32,000 nucleotides of DNA, from assembly GCA_964589775.1 (NCBI GenBank), contig CAZPUN010000062.1:1-32000 (forward strand). The letters are read 5' to 3'. The DNA is from an uncultured archaeon (GTDB lineage Archaea; Asgardarchaeota; Thorarchaeia; Thorarchaeales; CAZPUN01). How positions within the stretch are numbered: the stretch's first letter is position 1; every line of letters begins with the position of its first letter. The notes beneath the pieces were generated by a model, which searched no databases, had not been told where the DNA came from, and saw only the letters and a list, made by a program, of their open reading frames with translations. A program made the translations under genes and the position numbers. This document shows positions 5,561 through 31,558 of this stretch, piece by piece.

Positions 5561-6109
5561 TTAATTTGTATTTACTATATTTGTAATATGTTCAAATAAT
5601 TCTTCTATTCCAATATTATTTAAAGCACTTGCCTCAAAATAGCTTACTTTGTTTCCTATGAGTTGGCTCATATAATTGATAAACCTTAATATATCATTCT
5701 TTGATATTTCTCTTTGATCTAGATCAATTTTATTTAGTATCAGTATGACCTTTTTATTCTTATTCAAACTATTTTGTATCCATGGTAAGATTTCAGAGAC
5801 AAATATCTCCCTTGCTCGTTGTAACGTCTCACGTCGAGAAACATCAACAACTAACCCTACTATTGATGCGCCTCTATATTGCCCTTTTCGCATAAAATCA
5901 AATTGTCGTCTTCCTGCAATTTCAACAAATTGAAATGTAAAATTGGTATTCATTTTATTTATACGTTTTGAAAAAATATCCATACCAATTGTCATTTTAT
6001 ACGTGGAAACAGTTTCATTATTTATATATCTCTTTAATAATGCTGTTTTTCCGGTTTGCGCTGCTCCAGTAAAAATAACTTTAATTGTATTCAACTCTTC
6101 TCTCTCCAC
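5561..6109 (-). CDS. Rab/Ras-like small GTPase (eukaryotic signature protein family)
   Basis: G1 GAAQTGKT, switch I YKMTIGMDI, G3-like EIAGR, G4 NKID, G5 EASA..N.GIEELF. Confidence 0.9.
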   Translation of the reverse strand: MEREELNTIKVIFTGAAQTGKTALLKRYINNETVSTYKMTIGMDIFSKRINKMNTNFTFQFVEIAGRRQFDFMRKGQYRGASIVGLVVDVSRRETLQRAREIFVSEILPWIQNSLNKNKKVILILNKIDLDQREISKNDILRFINYMSQLIGNKVSYFEASALNNIGIEELFEHITNIVNTN

Positions 6110-15020: not shown

Positions 15021-16535
15021 CTACCTTTCCTTTTTCTTAACATGCCTGAACCACAATGCAATTGCTACAACCGCTATAGAAGCAGCTATCATAATGTATA
15101 TCGTTTGCCGATCAATCTTGATCTCAAAACTAATCGATACTGGACTTGAACCTTGAGCTAAATCTGAAACTATGAATATTTTTGCAACATACTGTCCTCG
15201 TTCAAAATTCAAAGCTGATAATTCTACACTCCAAATATCCTTCGTGCTATCGTATGTGAGAGACGTAGTTGTTATATTTTCTAAAGTTTCCATGTCTGTA
15301 CTGTTTGTAACCATTATACCCGGTGGGACTTCATAGATTATACATTCCATTTTCAAGTTTGTATATTCATTGACACTTTTTCCAGGTTCGTTCGTTATTA
15401 CATCGGATAATTTTATATTAATCGTAAATAGGCTTGTACTAATCTTTGGTGTTGATGCGGATATTGTAAATATTCTTCGTGTTATTTTTAATTGCTGAAT
15501 CGGATAACCTTCTGAAAACATCAAGAACAATTGATTGTTAGAATCTTTGCCAATTAATGGGTCTATACCCGCATTTAACCAAAATTTTCTGGGCCTTAAC
15601 CAAGTCTTTCCATCTGCCGAATATGCAGAATATATCTTATGACCTGATATTGTTTCCGATTCGAAATAAAGCATAAACACGCCATTATCATTTACGAATA
15701 AACTAGGCATCATGTCATTATTGTTGCCATTTTCGTCATTTTCTGCAGCTAATATGGGGCTTGTCCAATTAATCAAATTATTTGAACTTGTAATATATAT
15801 ATCATAGTCTGTACCATTTATTGAGTTATCATTATCTTTAATGAATGTCATATAATAATTGTTAGCATGGCTAATAATTCTCGGCTGCAGTGCGTTTGTG
15901 TTGAAAAATGTAATCTGTGTTTCATTTGTAAGTTGATAAAGTGTTGTGTTCAAGCTCATTTTATAGATGTTAAAAATTCCTGTATGATTTGCTGCATAAA
16001 ATAGTGTGATATTTCCATTATCGTTAACAATTGTGGGATGTATGTAACTAACATTTCCGCTTCCGATTGTTTTTATTGAAGACCATTCTGCGGTGAAAAT
16101 GTCTTTTGAAACATTTGCATATACAATTCCAATTCGATAGTTTCCACTTGTTTGCATTGTAAATGCGACAGCAATGATATTCTTGTTAATTTGGACAATA
16201 CTCGGATAGAAAAAGTCTATTGTAGATACATTAAATTCTTTAACAATTTTGAAATCATAGTTTTCATCTATCATATTTTCGGCTTTTAGAATATATATAG
16301 ATCTTAAATCTGTTCCACTATTCGCTGCAGTCATTGCGAACAATAATCCATAACTTGTACTGGCGTACGTAGTTTGGGTGCATTCAAAATTTTCTAGTGG
16401 TGCAATGATTTTTGGTGGGATCATTCCATTTTCTACTTGTGCATCAACATGAACAATATTATTCGACGTATTAATTTGAACAAATATAATCATCACTAAG
16501 ACAATTAATTTTATTGTATTCCTTGCTACTCTCAT
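15021..16535 (-). CDS. Secreted, C-terminally membrane-anchored protein with BNR/Asp-box (sialidase-like propeller) repeats
   Basis: N-terminal signal-like MRVARNTIKLIVLVMIIFV. Repeated P-S/T-hydrophobic blades (YPSIV, HPTIV, QPRII, MPSLF). Asp-boxes SSNNLINW and SADGKTW. C-terminal TM helix plus RHVKKKER. Confidence 0.7.
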   Translation of the reverse strand: MRVARNTIKLIVLVMIIFVQINTSNNIVHVDAQVENGMIPPKIIAPLENFECTQTTYASTSYGLLFAMTAANSGTDLRSIYILKAENMIDENYDFKIVKEFNVSTIDFFYPSIVQINKNIIAVAFTMQTSGNYRIGIVYANVSKDIFTAEWSSIKTIGSGNVSYIHPTIVNDNGNITLFYAANHTGIFNIYKMSLNTTLYQLTNETQITFFNTNALQPRIISHANNYYMTFIKDNDNSINGTDYDIYITSSNNLINWTSPILAAENDENGNNNDMMPSLFVNDNGVFMLYFESETISGHKIYSAYSADGKTWLRPRKFWLNAGIDPLIGKDSNNQLFLMFSEGYPIQQLKITRRIFTISASTPKISTSLFTINIKLSDVITNEPGKSVNEYTNLKMECIIYEVPPGIMVTNSTDMETLENITTTSLTYDSTKDIWSVELSALNFERGQYVAKIFIVSDLAQGSSPVSISFEIKIDRQTIYIMIAASIAVVAIALWFRHVKKKER

Positions 16536-25666: not shown

Positions 25667-26509
25667 TTAGATTTTACGAGCGAATAATTTCAGAGATTGA
25701 ATATCTGCAGGAATAAACGATAGATCAATCTCTACGATATCTCCTTTTTGTACTTTTATGGGATCTTTGAATGGGATGAATAGTGGTTTCCAACCATCTT
25801 TATAGTCGATTTTTATATTCTCGCTTATTTCTGATTCAAACACACCAAAGAGGCCTTCAGCAATTCCATCTTGGTCTGCTTGAATCTGCATGGTTCCCTT
25901 TACAGGAATTTCAATTTGTTTTCGAAAATCGAACTCCTTAAAGAGATACATTTCTGAAAGTTCTTCGCCTTTCCATTCTTCAACAGATTGTGGTAATGGC
26001 GGAAATTTAATATCCTCGAATGTAAATCTTTCTAAGATACCCTTTGAATTATACAACGAAAAGTAAACTCGTGCATTTTGGGGGATCATTATTCCATCTT
26101 TCTTTAGAATGTATTTATTTGCATGATTCGCCATTGTAATTTGTTGTTCAATTATCATCGCTGAGCTTAGCATCTCAGAAACTACAATATCTGCTTTAAT
26201 CTCTGGCTTTATGTCTGCAAAATGTGCATTTACAAAATGAATTTTATCACTTACATTATTTAGTTCTGCAGCTTTTCGTGCATAATCAATATTTAATGGA
26301 TCTATATCAACTGCAACAACTCTTGCAGCTCCTGCCTTTGCAGCTAAAATGGCTAATATTCCTGTTCCCGTTCCCAAATCATAAACAATGTCTGTGTCTT
26401 TAATACTCTTTCTAAGAGCCTGTGCGAATGCCCTTAATCGCGTCTTGTGACTCAATAGGCTTGCCGCATGCAATATACTGAATGGTGTTGCTAGTTTTAT
26501 GTTTTCCAT
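25667..26509 (-). CDS. Class I SAM-dependent methyltransferase, protein arginine methyltransferase (PRMT)-like
   Basis: H..LL..K.R..AF..AL helix, VYDLGTGTGILA, DIVVSEM.....IE double-E-like loop, LKKDG.MIP, beta-rich C-terminus. Probable start MENIK (26509); track start is 26635. Confidence 0.8.
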   Translation of the reverse strand: MENIKLATPFSILHAASLLSHKTRLRAFAQALRKSIKDTDIVYDLGTGTGILAILAAKAGAARVVAVDIDPLNIDYARKAAELNNVSDKIHFVNAHFADIKPEIKADIVVSEMLSSAMIIEQQITMANHANKYILKKDGIMIPQNARVYFSLYNSKGILERFTFEDIKFPPLPQSVEEWKGEELSEMYLFKEFDFRKQIEIPVKGTMQIQADQDGIAEGLFGVFESEISENIKIDYKDGWKPLFIPFKDPIKVQKGDIVEIDLSFIPADIQSLKLFARKI

Positions 26510-26623
26510 CGTAATCAATCTCTCATGATTTCTTGCATATGTACAAAGATATATCAATGATATTACTAAAGAATTCTTCAATATATACATTTCACAATAT
26601 TTGAGAATTAAGGGGTAATTTAT

Positions 26624-27763
26624 TTGGAAGAGCAAACCAAGCAGCGCATCACACGAATTCTTGAAAGTGGAAAATACGATAAAATACTTGTTGAGCTCGA
26701 ACAGATCGTGCGTGAAGATCCGGACGATGTCGATGCGAAAGTTCTTTTAGGGTTATCATATATTCAAGACTCTAAGCCAGAACGAGCTATTGAAATTCTT
26801 GAACAAGTCTCTAATGAATTTGAAAGCAATCCTATAATCTGCCATTTTCTAGGTCATGCATATCTAGCAACGGGTCAATTAGAAAAAGCAAAAGATGCCC
26901 TTGAGAAATCTGTACATGAAGATGAAGGTAATTTATCTGCATTATATGATCTTGCATTAACGCTTTTTCATTTAGGCGAATATAAAAATGCCATTGATTA
27001 CATTACCATTGGTTTAAAGAATTTTAATAATGCTGCCGTACTTCACAAGCTTGCAGGCGATGTATGCCTCTTATTAGGTGACTATGAACGTGCTATTTAT
27101 CATTGGACCGAAGCATTACCTGCGAAAATTGAACCTGAAACTATTATGCATAATATGGCGTTAGCATATATTTTATCTTCAGATTTTGAGAAAGCAATAG
27201 ACCTGTTAAATGACGCTCTTTTAATAACTCCTGATGATAATGATATTAGAAGCACATTGGCTCTTGCATTCATTAGAATTAATGAATTAGATAAAGCTGA
27301 AGAACTATTACTTTCTGTAATAAACAAGAATCCAACGCATTTCAATGCTTTACTCTTCTTATCTCAAGTATACTATCTCAAACGCAATCGAGATCTGTGT
27401 AATAAATACTATGATCAGGCAATGTCCTTGATGGGTACTGATGCAGATAAGTTATTTACTGTTGCATTGACGTATCGTAATTGTAAAGAGTATGATGAAG
27501 CCGTATCCTTCCTGAATCTTGCAATTGGACAATTACCTGATGTGCCAATATTTCATCAAGAACTAGCAAAGACCTATTTTTATATGGGCAAGATGCAACT
27601 TTCTTATGAGGAATTAGTTAAAGTGTTTGAACTGCGTGGTTATTTAAAGCTTTCATGCCCTAGCTGCAATATGATTACCAAAATAAAATCCCTAGATGAT
27701 AAATTTGAATGCCCCAAATGTAAAGCGATATTAAAAATGCCTGAAAATTATTGGTGGAAGTAG
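26624..27763 (+). CDS. Tetratricopeptide repeat protein with C-terminal Zn ribbon
   Basis: About 9 TPR-like repeats (LG..Y...G..E.A...L). C-terminal CPSC...CPKC. TTG start after GGGGT. Confidence 0.88.
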   Translation: MEEQTKQRITRILESGKYDKILVELEQIVREDPDDVDAKVLLGLSYIQDSKPERAIEILEQVSNEFESNPIICHFLGHAYLATGQLEKAKDALEKSVHEDEGNLSALYDLALTLFHLGEYKNAIDYITIGLKNFNNAAVLHKLAGDVCLLLGDYERAIYHWTEALPAKIEPETIMHNMALAYILSSDFEKAIDLLNDALLITPDDNDIRSTLALAFIRINELDKAEELLLSVINKNPTHFNALLFLSQVYYLKRNRDLCNKYYDQAMSLMGTDADKLFTVALTYRNCKEYDEAVSFLNLAIGQLPDVPIFHQELAKTYFYMGKMQLSYEELVKVFELRGYLKLSCPSCNMITKIKSLDDKFECPKCKAILKMPENYWWK

Positions 27764-27775
27764 AGCTGGTCAAAA

Positions 27776-28198
27776 ATGAAGAGACCTGAAATTGCAGTCA
27801 GTGGAATTATAACCAAGAATAACAAAGTACTTTTAATTAAGCGTGGGCATGAACCCGCGAAGGGTTGGTGGTCTGTTCCAGGTGGTCATGTAGAATGGGG
27901 CGAACATATTCAAGAAGCTCTTATTCGTGAAGTACGTGAGGAATGTAATATAGATGTAAAGCCAATTCGCTTATTTAGTATTATTGAGGCTATTGATAAG
28001 AAAACCCCTCCTGATTATCATTTCATTCTTATCGATTATATTGCTGAATATGTGTCAGGTAATCCAACAATTGGTAGTGATGCTTCGGACATTGGTTGGT
28101 TCTCCGAAAATGAACTGGACAACATGAAGGTTGTTCCTTCTGTGCTAAAAGTATTAAAATCATATTTTCGAGGGGATCCAAGTTTTATTGACCTCTAA
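27776..28198 (+). CDS. NUDIX hydrolase (ADP-ribose pyrophosphatase/YjhB-like)
   Basis: Nudix box PGGHVEWGEHIQEALIREVREEC; VLLIKRG.EP.KG.WS. Confidence 0.93.
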   Translation: MKRPEIAVSGIITKNNKVLLIKRGHEPAKGWWSVPGGHVEWGEHIQEALIREVREECNIDVKPIRLFSIIEAIDKKTPPDYHFILIDYIAEYVSGNPTIGSDASDIGWFSENELDNMKVVPSVLKVLKSYFRGDPSFIDL

Positions 28199-29459: not shown

Positions 29460-29999
29460 TCATAAATCTATTAATTTAGGGATTTCTTTGTTTGCGTAAA
29501 TTGTATCGCCTTGAATCGTAATATAGTTTAGGCTTTCCAAAGCTCTTAAATTGTTCGATAGTTCGTCATGGTCCATACCTGACAATTTTTGAAGATCGTC
29601 AAATAGAACTGATTCGTGCTCTTGTATTATACATAATATTTGATATTTTGGCTCTTTGCGAATGATTTCAACATATTTTATAATTGACAACTTAGTATCG
29701 CTAAGTACTTTTTCTTTTTCAACTAATTGGGCTGATAATTCATCAAATTTTGTTAAAGACTTTCCAATTAAATTCAAGGTTTGCGTAATCAGGTCTGAGA
29801 TTTCTTTTGCGGAGTCTGAAACTTCATTTAGTTTCGTGATAAATTGTTGTCGTAATTCCTCGTTCTTTTTATCTTCCATTGGTTTTAACTTCATAATGTA
29901 TTGAATGTAATCACTGATTATTTTACGCGTAGCATCTAATTTTCCTTGATATTGCATCAAAAATTCTTCAGATTTTCGAAGTTTCTCGTCTAAGGTCAT
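29460..29999 (-). CDS. Coiled-coil protein with C-terminal winged helix-turn-helix
   Basis: Heptad-rich first ~110 aa, then PKYQIL.II......FDDL.KLSG.....L...L..LE...YI. ATGA overlap with the upstream gene. Confidence 0.7.
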   Translation of the reverse strand: MTLDEKLRKSEEFLMQYQGKLDATRKIISDYIQYIMKLKPMEDKKNEELRQQFITKLNEVSDSAKEISDLITQTLNLIGKSLTKFDELSAQLVEKEKVLSDTKLSIIKYVEIIRKEPKYQILCIIQEHESVLFDDLQKLSGMDHDELSNNLRALESLNYITIQGDTIYANKEIPKLIDL

Positions 30000-31558
30000 A
30001 ATTCTTCCTCCTTAATTCCGAATTCATCCAAATACACACGCTCTTTGTATTTTGTGTAATTAGTTTTTGTTTTCTTAGGTGTCCATCCCTCTAACATAAT
30101 ATCAAATGATATAGTTGTAAAAGTTTTTGAGAACATTTTTCCATTTAGTACAACACTTTCTTCTGGTTCTATCTCCTTAACCTTCCAAATTATTGATGTT
30201 CCCGCCTCTTGTTCATGTATTTCGCTATTTTCAAGATCTGTTAGAATTTCATATTTTTTAGATGGTAGATTGATAATTCCCTTAATTCCGAAGGCTTTTG
30301 TCGTTCGTGGATTTGTAATTTTGAACTTCCAATATTTTATATCGTCTTTACCTTCAATAATATCTAATGATGCATTCAAGTATGTTTTATTCTTACTAAC
30401 TAACTTCTTTGTCTGGCGATAAATTATTTTGCGTTCGTCTAACGTATATGTGATCGTTAGATCATGTTTTACATTATTTTTCGTTATTTTGTATCTTAAT
30501 GCCGTGCCTATTGCAGGTTGTTCTCGTTCCATGCCCAGCATCATTGGTGTTATTTCAAGAATATCGTACTGTTCTGGTATTATGTCTTCAATTATAATGT
30601 AGTCGACATCGTCTGCTCTTGGAATTTTAAATTCTAATTTTGAATATATTTTTTCATCATTTCTTATTATGTCTCCATATTGTCGATACATTTTCAAGAC
30701 GCCATTCTCACTAATTATTATTGTTCGATATATTCTGGGCATGAGGTAATATGTTGTTTCGATAGTATCTCCCTGTTGTAATTTATTGATTTTCCATATG
30801 TATTCCGTGCCATCTGGTGTAAATCTTTTAGTACCTTGTTCTTCAGTATATTCAATGTGAGTTACTTGATATTCGTTAGGGATAACGTCCTTGATTTCTA
30901 CATTTTCAATATGTTCACATTCTGTGTTTGTAAGTCCGGATATCAAAATTGATGTCCATGATGTAAAATTCGAAATGATCTTGATTTTATTATGTGCCTT
31001 TATTTGTTCTCCATTAGCCCAATTAAAATATCTAAAACTATTTGCAATTCCCGTTATTTTTGGACGATTTGCAACTATTAAATCTTCAAAATCTTTTATT
31101 TCACTATCTTGTGATAATTCGTTAATATCTATGTGAATCGGAAATCTAGGCGTTAAGGAAATCAAGTTTGTTCCTTCATCATATACCGTATGCTTTTCAA
31201 GAATATTTTCCTTTTCCCCTTTTGCTTGCATGACAAGATCATATACTAATGCAAGCTCTGGAAACATATTTACAGAATCCATATCTAATTCTCTAAGAAG
31301 ACTTGAAATTCTTCTCGAATCGTTGTTGAAATGTGCATATAGTAGTGCTTTTGCTTGATACCTAGCAGACTGTCGGTAATTCACTTTTAAAAGGTATAGA
31401 AATGCTAATTTTGATGAAACTTTGGATGCCATATCATAATTTCCATTTTCTACAAACATTCGTACTGCAGTTTCATACGCGTCAATTGCTTTATTCCAAT
31501 TTGATCGTGATTCATATTTTTTTCCTAGCAAATAATATTTCCATGAGCATATTATCAT
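29996..31558 (-). CDS. Hypothetical protein: N-terminal TPR/SNAP-like helices plus about three beta-sandwich (DUF11-like) repeats
   Basis: NWNKAIDAYETAVRMF..NGNY..A helical repeats. Repeats IKDVIP...YIWKINKL..G, IEDIIP...LRYKI and ITN...NLP...IIWKVKEIEP. ATGA overlaps on both sides. Confidence 0.7.
   Translation of the reverse strand: MIICSWKYYLLGKKYESRSNWNKAIDAYETAVRMFVENGNYDMASKVSSKLAFLYLLKVNYRQSARYQAKALLYAHFNNDSRRISSLLRELDMDSVNMFPELALVYDLVMQAKGEKENILEKHTVYDEGTNLISLTPRFPIHIDINELSQDSEIKDFEDLIVANRPKITGIANSFRYFNWANGEQIKAHNKIKIISNFTSWTSILISGLTNTECEHIENVEIKDVIPNEYQVTHIEYTEEQGTKRFTPDGTEYIWKINKLQQGDTIETTYYLMPRIYRTIIISENGVLKMYRQYGDIIRNDEKIYSKLEFKIPRADDVDYIIIEDIIPEQYDILEITPMMLGMEREQPAIGTALRYKITKNNVKHDLTITYTLDERKIIYRQTKKLVSKNKTYLNASLDIIEGKDDIKYWKFKITNPRTTKAFGIKGIINLPSKKYEILTDLENSEIHEQEAGTSIIWKVKEIEPEESVVLNGKMFSKTFTTISFDIMLEGWTPKKTKTNYTKYKERVYLDEFGIKEEEL

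Follow-up and report, generated by a model that had tools for sequence, protein, structure and literature searches.

A compact enzyme of the protein arginine methyltransferase fold, restricted to a single Asgard order and encoded next to a TPR/zinc-ribbon gene

The stretch of archaeal DNA analyzed here (32,000 nucleotides, hereafter the window) carries a gene for a protein of the protein arginine methyltransferase (PRMT) fold in which both the SAM site and the arginine clamp are intact. The protein belongs to one Asgard order, and its gene forms a divergent pair with a gene encoding a TPR/zinc-ribbon protein, after which a Nudix hydrolase gene follows. The features of the locus are listed below.

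25667..26509, minus strand: PRMT-fold methyltransferase gene, 280 aa (open reading frame, AlphaFold2 model, Foldseek/VIA-align, family profile versus PDB)
26351..26380, minus strand: SAM-binding motif I, DLGTGTGILA, residues 44-53 (G46, T47, and G48 invariant in 41 sequences)
26141..26179, minus strand: double-E loop, SEMLSSAMIIEQQ, residues 111-123, with E112 and E121 (both Glu invariant in 41 sequences and aligned on the PRMT double-E loop)
25790..25798, minus strand: DGW, residues 238-240, at the place of the PRMT THW loop (D238, G239, and W240 each at least 90% conserved in 41 sequences)
26510..26623, no strand: AT-rich spacer of 114 bp between the divergent PRMT-like and TPR genes, presumably a shared promoter (median spacer 110 bp in 74 genomes)
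26624..27763, plus strand: partner gene, 379 aa, with about ten TPR repeats and a C-terminal zinc ribbon (Pfam TPR families; AlphaFold2 pLDDT 92.6, 20 helices plus a beta ribbon)
27656..27721, plus strand: zinc ribbon CPSC...CPKC with C345, C348, C363, and C366 (four Cys invariant in 13 orthologues)
27776..28198, plus strand: Nudix hydrolase gene, 140 aa, 12 bp past the TPR gene, with its Nudix box at 27884-27952 (PF00293, 1.9e-20)

The open reading frame that encloses the enzyme gene extends over 25667..26635 on the minus strand, and the 280 residues are counted from the ATG at 26509. This start is supported by our alignment of 41 family members (which was also used for conservation, the family profile, and the AlphaFold2 model), since the N termini of the relatives begin a few residues ahead of a conserved ATPF string. 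A Rossmann SAM domain occupies residues ~1-144, and a beta-barrel domain with a short arm covers residues 145-280. The N-terminal helix motif reads HAASLLSHKTRLRAF (residues 14-28), and all SAM motifs of the Rossmann domain were found, i.e., VYDLGTGTGILA (motif I), VVAVD (post-I acidic), KADIVV (motif II), and LKKDGIMIP (motif III; residues 135-143). Residues R24, G46, T47, G48, D107, E112, E121, G139, and P143 are invariant in the 41 sequences, and the motif set as a whole is far beyond chance. These motifs fit the PRMT definitions given in passages of PMC12153873, namely V/I-x-G/A-x-D/E for post-I, SExMGxxLxxExM for the double-E loop, and LKxxGxxxP for motif III.

Every string that a preliminary description of this DNA had quoted for the gene is present within 25667..26509, on a strand (minus) that the description left unnamed. 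The N-terminal string that it wrote as H..LL does mark a motif there, but the true spacing is H, three residues, and LL. Its comparison of two Glu residues nine positions apart with the PRMT double-E loop is confirmed by E112 and E121, both of them invariant. In PRMTs, this pair of Glu clamps the guanidinium group.

With respect to the THW criterion, only the Trp of Thr-His-Trp is retained in the enzyme, and KPLFIPF follows directly after DGW. In an alignment of 59 rows, DGW occurs in 12/12 family rows and T/N/D-H-W in most other PRMT-likes, prokaryotic and eukaryotic. The same alignment shows LLS[H/Q] or LLGQ in 12/12 family rows at the helix position of the "ML.D" Asp, and ML.D in most other PRMT-likes. 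Given that both changes are found in all 12 family rows, the THW His and the helix Asp, which touch each other in PRMT1, have been replaced together. The family is a lineage-specific variant of the PRMT site, in which Gly stands for the THW His and His or Gln for the helix Asp, with a shortened loop ahead of the Trp and a shortened arm region.

The absence of the THW His from all 12 family rows could also point to a "prozyme", a PRMT-like subunit with a regulatory role or without catalysis of its own, of the kind represented by trypanosome PRMT3, which lacks the conserved loop residues. Indeed, passages of PMC8226133 put on record an inactive PRMT paralogue that is devoid of THW and double-E residues, but they likewise describe TbPRMT7 as active with Gln329 at the position of the THW His. 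Unlike a prozyme, the family keeps both Glu and the SAM motifs invariant across the 41 sequences, and the window's genome contains no second PRMT-like gene that such a subunit might serve. We consider it highly improbable that the protein is a dead subunit.

The AlphaFold2 model, obtained with the 41-member alignment, has a pLDDT of 91.7 and a pTM of 0.87. It comprises an N-terminal helix pair, a Rossmann domain, and an all-beta C-terminal domain (strands in 145-279) with a short insert at residues 155-187. A Foldseek search of the PDB returned, among the matches listed, only PRMTs (PRMT7, 5, 3, 1, 6, and 2), with E values from 1.2e-21 to 1.9e-19 and query TM scores of 0.72-0.82. VIA-align, applied to the Foldseek candidates, gave PRMTs in 50/50 entries listed (Z 26.8-28.0; rmsd 2.5-3.5 Å; 268-278 of 280 residues). 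More specifically, the model superposes on PRMT1, PRMT7, CARM1, and PRMT5 at Z 27-28 (rmsd 2.5-2.6 Å; 269-278 of 280 residues), and it reaches residue 280 on their barrels. Since 268-278 of the 280 residues superpose on PRMTs, barrel included, the barrel is whole and the protein is compact, not truncated. The "reduced barrel" of the preliminary description is only partly right: over the span aligned with PRMT8 the protein falls 23 residues short, but every barrel strand is modelled, with high confidence. The missing residues are located in the arm region (~13) and in the loop ahead of the DGW Trp (8-9), and the arm-like insert at 155-187 contains a single short helix; R161, F169, P170, Q174, and T175 of the insert are near-invariant. 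In PRMTs, the arm mediates dimerization, and activity depends on the homodimer.

Profile and sequence searches lead to the same fold family. The family profile matched solved PRMTs at E values of 7e-40 to 1e-28, with profile positions 7-269 on PRMT8 42-327, and it sets "edgwrelflP" on "thwkqtvfyl" of PRMT8. Among the best 60 PDB chains found with this profile, 59 bear arginine-methyltransferase names, and the remaining one (8rbk_A, "MGC151858 protein") aligns like PRMT9. With the single sequence, 56 of the best 60 PDB matches were arginine methyltransferases, including PRMT7 (3.6e-16) and Hmt1/PRMT1 (2.2e-15); the other four were an RNA methyltransferase, two trimethylguanosine synthase chains, and PrmA (1ufk; 2.4e-7). 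Thus, the structural and profile matches bear out the preliminary view of an archaeal PRMT relative that is neither PrmA nor a small-molecule methylase, and neither of the latter came up as the best match in the Foldseek comparison that had been suggested as a check.

PrmA is nevertheless the best Pfam match of the enzyme (1.5e-19), although it covers only the shared methyltransferase core, i.e., residues 30-145 on profile positions 153-266 of 296. Combined with NCBI records in which relatives are named "50S ribosomal protein L11 methyltransferase", the name that most records carry, this match could mean that the enzyme modifies a ribosomal protein at lysine or at an N terminus in the manner of PrmA, or that it is some other non-arginine protein methylase. 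We regard this as quite improbable. None of the 25 NCBIfam models shown reached its cut-off, and TIGR00406 (prmA) scored 68.2 bits versus a cut-off of 183.15; solved PrmA was matched far less well than PRMT7 in the single-sequence search above. The enzyme and PrmA have a class I Rossmann core and a similar motif I in common, but PrmA has an N-terminal domain of its own, no double E, and no barrel, whereas the enzyme opens directly with a PRMT-type helix and thus lacks the N-terminal L11-binding domain. Moreover, both double-E Glu are absent from the PrmA outgroup rows of the 59-row alignment, and these rows split from the PRMT-fold clade at SH-aLRT 99-100. Matches in the ESM Atlas were limited to the enzyme's own cluster and bacterial clusters labelled "PrmA".

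The Pfam PRMT_C family (PF22528) gave no match to the enzyme at E values up to 1, which counts against a PRMT assignment, and PRMT5_C (PF17286) remained below its curated cut-off (18.9 versus 30.3 bits), with the PRMT5 model also being weak. Despite these sub-threshold scores, the structural model indicates that the PRMT C-terminal domain is present, albeit diverged. A comparison with eukaryotic PRMT cores (PRMT1/Hmt1, PRMT8, CARM1, PRMT6, TbPRMT7, and PRMT5) is consistent with this assignment: they share with the enzyme the N-terminal helix, the Rossmann domain, and the barrel with an inserted arm, as well as motifs I, post-I, II, and III, the nine-residue spacing of the double E, and the Trp of the THW loop. 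The eukaryotic cores differ in length (313-343 residues versus 280), are 16-22% identical to the enzyme, and have THW plus the helix Asp where the enzyme has DGW plus His/Gln.

A word-indexed search retrieved 195 relatives at E values up to 1e-3. The first 74 clusters (268-313 aa) have E values up to 2e-52, after which the values drop to 3.9e-23, and the named members of these clusters are Thorarchaeota or Promethearchaeota proteins. Their record names include "L11 methyltransferase", "predicted RNA methylase", "UbiE", and "RsmD", and in two instances "PRMT7" or "PRMT1". An exhaustive search yielded 11686 matches at E values up to 1e-3, only 6 of them at E values up to 1e-30. Among longer proteins (551-2000 aa), 12 matches were obtained and no fused form of the family, which is weak evidence; two of the 12 are unnamed, and the source names of the other ten are eukaryotic (one brown alga, the rest PRMT7-type fish proteins).

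Species genomes yielded 14 close loci (10 labelled as Thorarchaeota, 2 as Promethearchaeota, 1 as Hermodarchaeota, and 1 as "uncultured archaeon"), after which come bacteria of many phyla with full-length matches of 23-29% identity. Across 400 genomes of the phylum, family-level matches occur in the window's order only, in 80 of 87 genomes (the window's genome and 79/86 genomes of family f2). Families f17 (3/3), f18 (2/2), and f27 (1/5) contain distant PRMT-likes (1e-34 to 1e-43), which occur nowhere else among the 400 genomes (e.g., 0/135 in f22). The enzyme is encoded once in the window's genome (2.16 Mb, 96.75% complete), where the sole other match is a generic methyltransferase core (1.4e-7). 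Single in the window's genome and present in 80 of 87 genomes of the order, the gene is under selection.

We examined the neighborhood with 12 window proteins, i.e., the enzyme and eleven neighbors, by tblastn against the 14 close loci. The TPR gene is adjacent and divergent to the enzyme gene in 14/14 of them, and the Nudix gene follows the TPR gene in 13/14, being absent from L016. None of the 14 loci contains any of the nine other neighbors (MetRS, serine dehydratase subunits, MFS, HAD, HerA, and three hypotheticals). A profile of the TPR protein, run on the 400 phylum genomes, identified it at E values below 1e-40 in the window's genome and in 76/86 f2 genomes, a range that is the same as that of the enzyme; seven matches in other families (1e-31 to 1e-36) end short of the zinc ribbon. 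Once rows from other families had been removed, combining the two tables gave 80 genomes with the enzyme, 77 with the TPR protein, and 76 with both. Of the latter, 74 have the two genes in divergent orientation with less than 600 bp between them (median 110 bp). The contig starts at the enzyme gene or within ~140 bp of it in one of the two exceptions (G326) and in three of the four enzyme-only genomes.

Apart from the four Cys of the ribbon, R338, Y340, and K342 just ahead of it are also invariant in the 13 orthologues of the partner protein. We considered R338 (in "ELRGYVK") as a candidate substrate arginine. This residue closes the final TPR helix, where the ribbon joins on, and is followed by G, E, R, S, or Q; R338 is more likely structural, and we therefore dropped the idea.

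The Nudix box is conserved in 12 orthologues of the Nudix protein. Next to the PRMT-like gene, the Nudix-box pattern was found in 13/14 close loci versus 0/66 loci of distant relatives. Within the PRMT-like proteins themselves, it appears in 1 of 269 collected sequences (P0131, a single metagenomic protein with a PRMT_C + NUDIX fusion), and no match spanning both halves of such a fusion was present in the 400 phylum genomes. We also asked whether the PRMT-likes of 417-441 aa in other Asgard families are NUDIX fusions and rejected this: Pfam detected no NUDIX domain in the three scanned, and the box pattern occurs in 0/5. PADLOC pointed to a defense system: it assigned the enzyme to mad2, through residues 26-151 of the methyltransferase core alone, and the Nudix protein to the candidate PDC-S07. 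We judged these matches to be generic domain similarity, given that the three genes are a core feature of the order, syntenic and in single copy.

The Nudix neighbor could be an RNA pyrophosphohydrolase, as weak matches suggest, and the enzyme might then be an RNA methyltransferase that works with it on RNA 5' ends. The name "predicted RNA methylase" in JGI records of relatives and weak matches to the TRM5/TYW2 and RNA-cap guanine-N2 methyltransferase families agree with this scenario. We give it only a very slim chance. The RNA-family matches are confined to the generic Rossmann core, whereas PRMT specificity shows in the barrel, in the double-E clamp, and in a superposition over the whole length. 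In addition, the Nudix protein is closest to MutT/NUDT1-like chains (4dyw, 1.8e-21) and lies below every curated NCBIfam cut-off.

With the aim of placing the family among PRMTs, we compared it with eukaryotic and prokaryotic representatives. Scores to the family profile were 120-200 bits for prokaryotic PRMT-likes, 109-149 bits for eukaryotic type I PRMTs, and 84-94 bits for PRMT7 N-modules. The THW-type prokaryotic PRMT-likes (PF22528), which come from many bacterial phyla, mostly under the label "L11 methyltransferase", and from one Sigynarchaeota, belong to the same fold family as the enzyme, keep the double E, and align with the family profile over the full length. They differ in retaining T/N-H-W and the helix Asp, and in having no TPR/Nudix neighbors (Nudix box in 0/66 loci). 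PRMT_C was matched by 19/30 scanned prokaryotic PRMT-like representatives, while the Thor-type enzyme has no match. Scored with a profile of eight THW-type prokaryotic PRMT-likes, eukaryotic proteins named as PRMT6, PRMT3, or type I reached 257-277 bits.

Two quick IQ-TREE trees were calculated (LG+C20, SH-aLRT only, rooted on three PrmA sequences), and their branches are long. The rows were hand-picked: 12 of the ~74 family clusters, 7 loci of other Asgard genomes, 20 of 66 distant loci (full-length non-Asgard; 19 bacterial and one Woesearchaeota), and database proteins from outside the family (13 in the 59-row tree, 23 in the 69-row tree). The eukaryotes were represented by PRMT7 and type I only. 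The 59-row tree recovered the family as one clade (support 93) inside a basal polytomy. In the 69-row tree, which includes ten eukaryotic type I proteins, the family lies at the base with a support of only 37 for its own monophyly, and all other PRMT-fold rows form one clade (90). Eukaryotic type I PRMTs (99) nest there with P0157 (89), with the Sigynarchaeota protein P0150 plus P0131 (98), and with P0076 (83); P0157, P0150, and P0076 are of the THW-type prokaryotic group.

The groups for the AU tests were named after the trees had been seen. Uniting the family with eukaryotic type I (69 rows) lowered lnL by 52.3 (p-AU 0.0072) and was rejected, as was uniting it with the other Asgard PRMT-likes (lnL 54.6 lower; p-AU 0.00067). 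A clade with eukaryotic PRMT7 had an lnL 4.3 higher than the free tree and was not rejected (p-AU 0.596). Since a single clade for all Asgard PRMT-likes was rejected, these proteins are polyphyletic, with more than one origin. Collectively, our data show that the family is a deep, divergent PRMT branch, and an ancestral position relative to eukaryotic PRMTs does not follow from the phylogeny. The special relevance to the origin of eukaryotic arginine methylation that the preliminary description had put forward is not upheld in the form given: the family is limited to one Asgard order, the phylogeny with PrmA that it proposed does not group the family with eukaryotic type I PRMTs, and the THW-type prokaryotic PRMT-likes are nearer to the latter. 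A clade with PRMT7 alone is left standing by the AU test.

The nearest relatives outside the family are prokaryotic PRMT-likes, and passages of PMC3417536 place the closest bacterial PRMT relatives, as peptide methylases, in secondary-metabolite operons for antibiotic-like peptides, tracing the origin of PRMTs to such bacterial enzymes. Given these operons, a non-protein substrate is possible, and the enzyme might methylate peptides or guanidino groups, with a free peptide or a small molecule as its target instead of a folded protein, as proposed for the bacterial radiation said to be ancestral to PRMTs. This seems unlikely to us: NRPS, dioxygenase, and amine-oxidase genes are absent from the window and the conserved neighborhood, the conserved neighbor is a TPR protein, i.e., a protein-binding scaffold, and, across the order, the gene has the character of a single-copy core gene.

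We consider it fairly probable, judging from the motifs and the structural model, that the protein is an active SAM-dependent PRMT-fold enzyme that most likely methylates the guanidino nitrogen of protein arginine, with the TPR/zinc-ribbon protein as its dedicated partner. SAM would be bound in the Rossmann domain, where it is predicted to be held by motif I, by D68 (post-I acidic residue), and by R24 in the N-terminal helix. The gene order suggests that the TPR/zinc-ribbon protein may serve as a substrate-recruiting adaptor or may itself be the substrate, and that the co-transcribed Nudix hydrolase may act in the same pathway as the enzyme.

As for possible substrates, we scanned the window's genome for RG/RGG repeats. 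A loose filter retained 11 of the 7699 six-frame open reading frames (60 aa or longer), and real RG repeats are present in only two, C20:16012-16491 and C2:2440-2733. Neither is located near the enzyme gene, and no link to it was found in this genome; both kinds of protein also occur in organisms without PRMTs.

PRMT9 consists of TPR repeats fused to PRMT modules, and in PRMT3 a zinc finger is fused to the PRMT module. At the locus described here, both kinds of module reside in one separate protein that is encoded back-to-back with the enzyme, and the likeness of this partner to the TPR and zinc-finger accompaniment of PRMT9 and PRMT3 would be one of architecture. It is conceivable, if doubtful, that the PRMT-like, TPR/zinc-ribbon, and Nudix genes constitute a vertically inherited, order-wide arginine-methylation module of Thorarchaeota-type archaea in which the choice of substrate is left to an adaptor in trans, as a counterpart of the fused domains. 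In addition, the family could preserve a compact, pre-THW state of the fold, given that its branch is the deepest among the PRMT-fold proteins sampled when the tree is rooted with PrmA. In that case, protein arginine methylation by a dedicated enzyme would be older than eukaryotes and would have existed within Archaea.

Protein-arginine N-methylation by PRMT-fold enzymes is treated as a eukaryotic trait. A full-text literature search, with subscription journals outside its scope, found no published account of such an Asgard PRMT; what is newly seen here is the confinement to one Asgard order together with fixed TPR/zinc-ribbon and Nudix neighbors. Since databases mislabel the enzyme as an L11 or RNA methylase, our assignment also sets right a systematic misannotation that affects the named members of ~74 protein clusters. 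A compact PRMT-fold enzyme with an intact clamp and fixed partner genes makes archaeal arginine methylation directly testable. The three small soluble proteins offer a concrete system for asking whether archaea methylate arginine and on which substrates, how a PRMT works without the THW histidine, and whether a TPR adaptor acting in trans sets specificity.

The PRMT-like proteins encoded at three loci of relatives assigned to two other Asgard families (f17 and f18) are 417-441 aa long, and the alignment revealed that "PSW" or "ATW" replaces THW, the barrel-loop motif of PRMTs. In addition, all three possess a C-terminal extension of ~130 aa for which Pfam returned no match. The corresponding genes are as follows:

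L083:2584-3852, minus strand, PRMT-like (genome G127)
L085:2974-4227, plus strand, PRMT-like (genome G123)
L086:2911-4236, plus strand, PRMT-like (genome G126)

A variant locus was found in a Thorarchaeota record (L016:5001-5772), where the PRMT-like gene was matched as two pieces corresponding to residues 20-195 and 163-275 of the query, i.e., the 280-aa enzyme of the window. Since the two pieces share part of the query, a frameshift or an assembly error in this gene is suggested. No Nudix gene was detected downstream of the TPR gene in this locus. For the Nudix protein of the window itself (27776-28198, plus strand), PADLOC gave a full-length match (1.4e-21) to PDC-S07, a candidate phage-defence entry; we judged the match to reflect generic Nudix similarity.

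Other genes of the window include the following:

5561-6109, minus strand, small GTPase of the Ras/Roc/Arf family, 182 aa (PF00071, 2.8e-26)
29460-31558, 34-1680, and 15021-16535, minus strand, sizeable ORFs of 179, 520, 548, and 504 aa

Small GTPases of this type are among the eukaryote-like traits typical of Asgard archaea. None of the four sizeable ORFs was matched by a Pfam family at the cut-offs applied.

With respect to putative substrates, the window's own genome contains only two RG-repeat ORFs (C20:16012-16491, plus strand, and C2:2440-2733, minus strand). One carries a C-terminal (GMGR)n tail preceded by a seemingly NifX-like domain, and the other encodes a small protein with the N-terminal start MPRGNGRRGFGRGFG. 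Both are possible candidates for arginine methylation.

ESM Atlas match 4 (score 0.96 to the query) is a cluster of 160 proteins, 95% of which bear viral labels (Uroviricota, ~313 aa, PrmA-labelled). Phages may carry related methyltransferases.

The Sigynarchaeota protein P0150 (314 aa) combines a canonical THW with PRMT_C, and its sister in the 69-row quick tree is P0131, a PRMT_C and NUDIX fusion from a 3.3-kb contig. Eukaryotic type I PRMTs clustered with these two proteins in that tree (SH-aLRT 83). It may be this Asgard lineage, rather than the Thor-type family of the query, that bears on PRMT origins.
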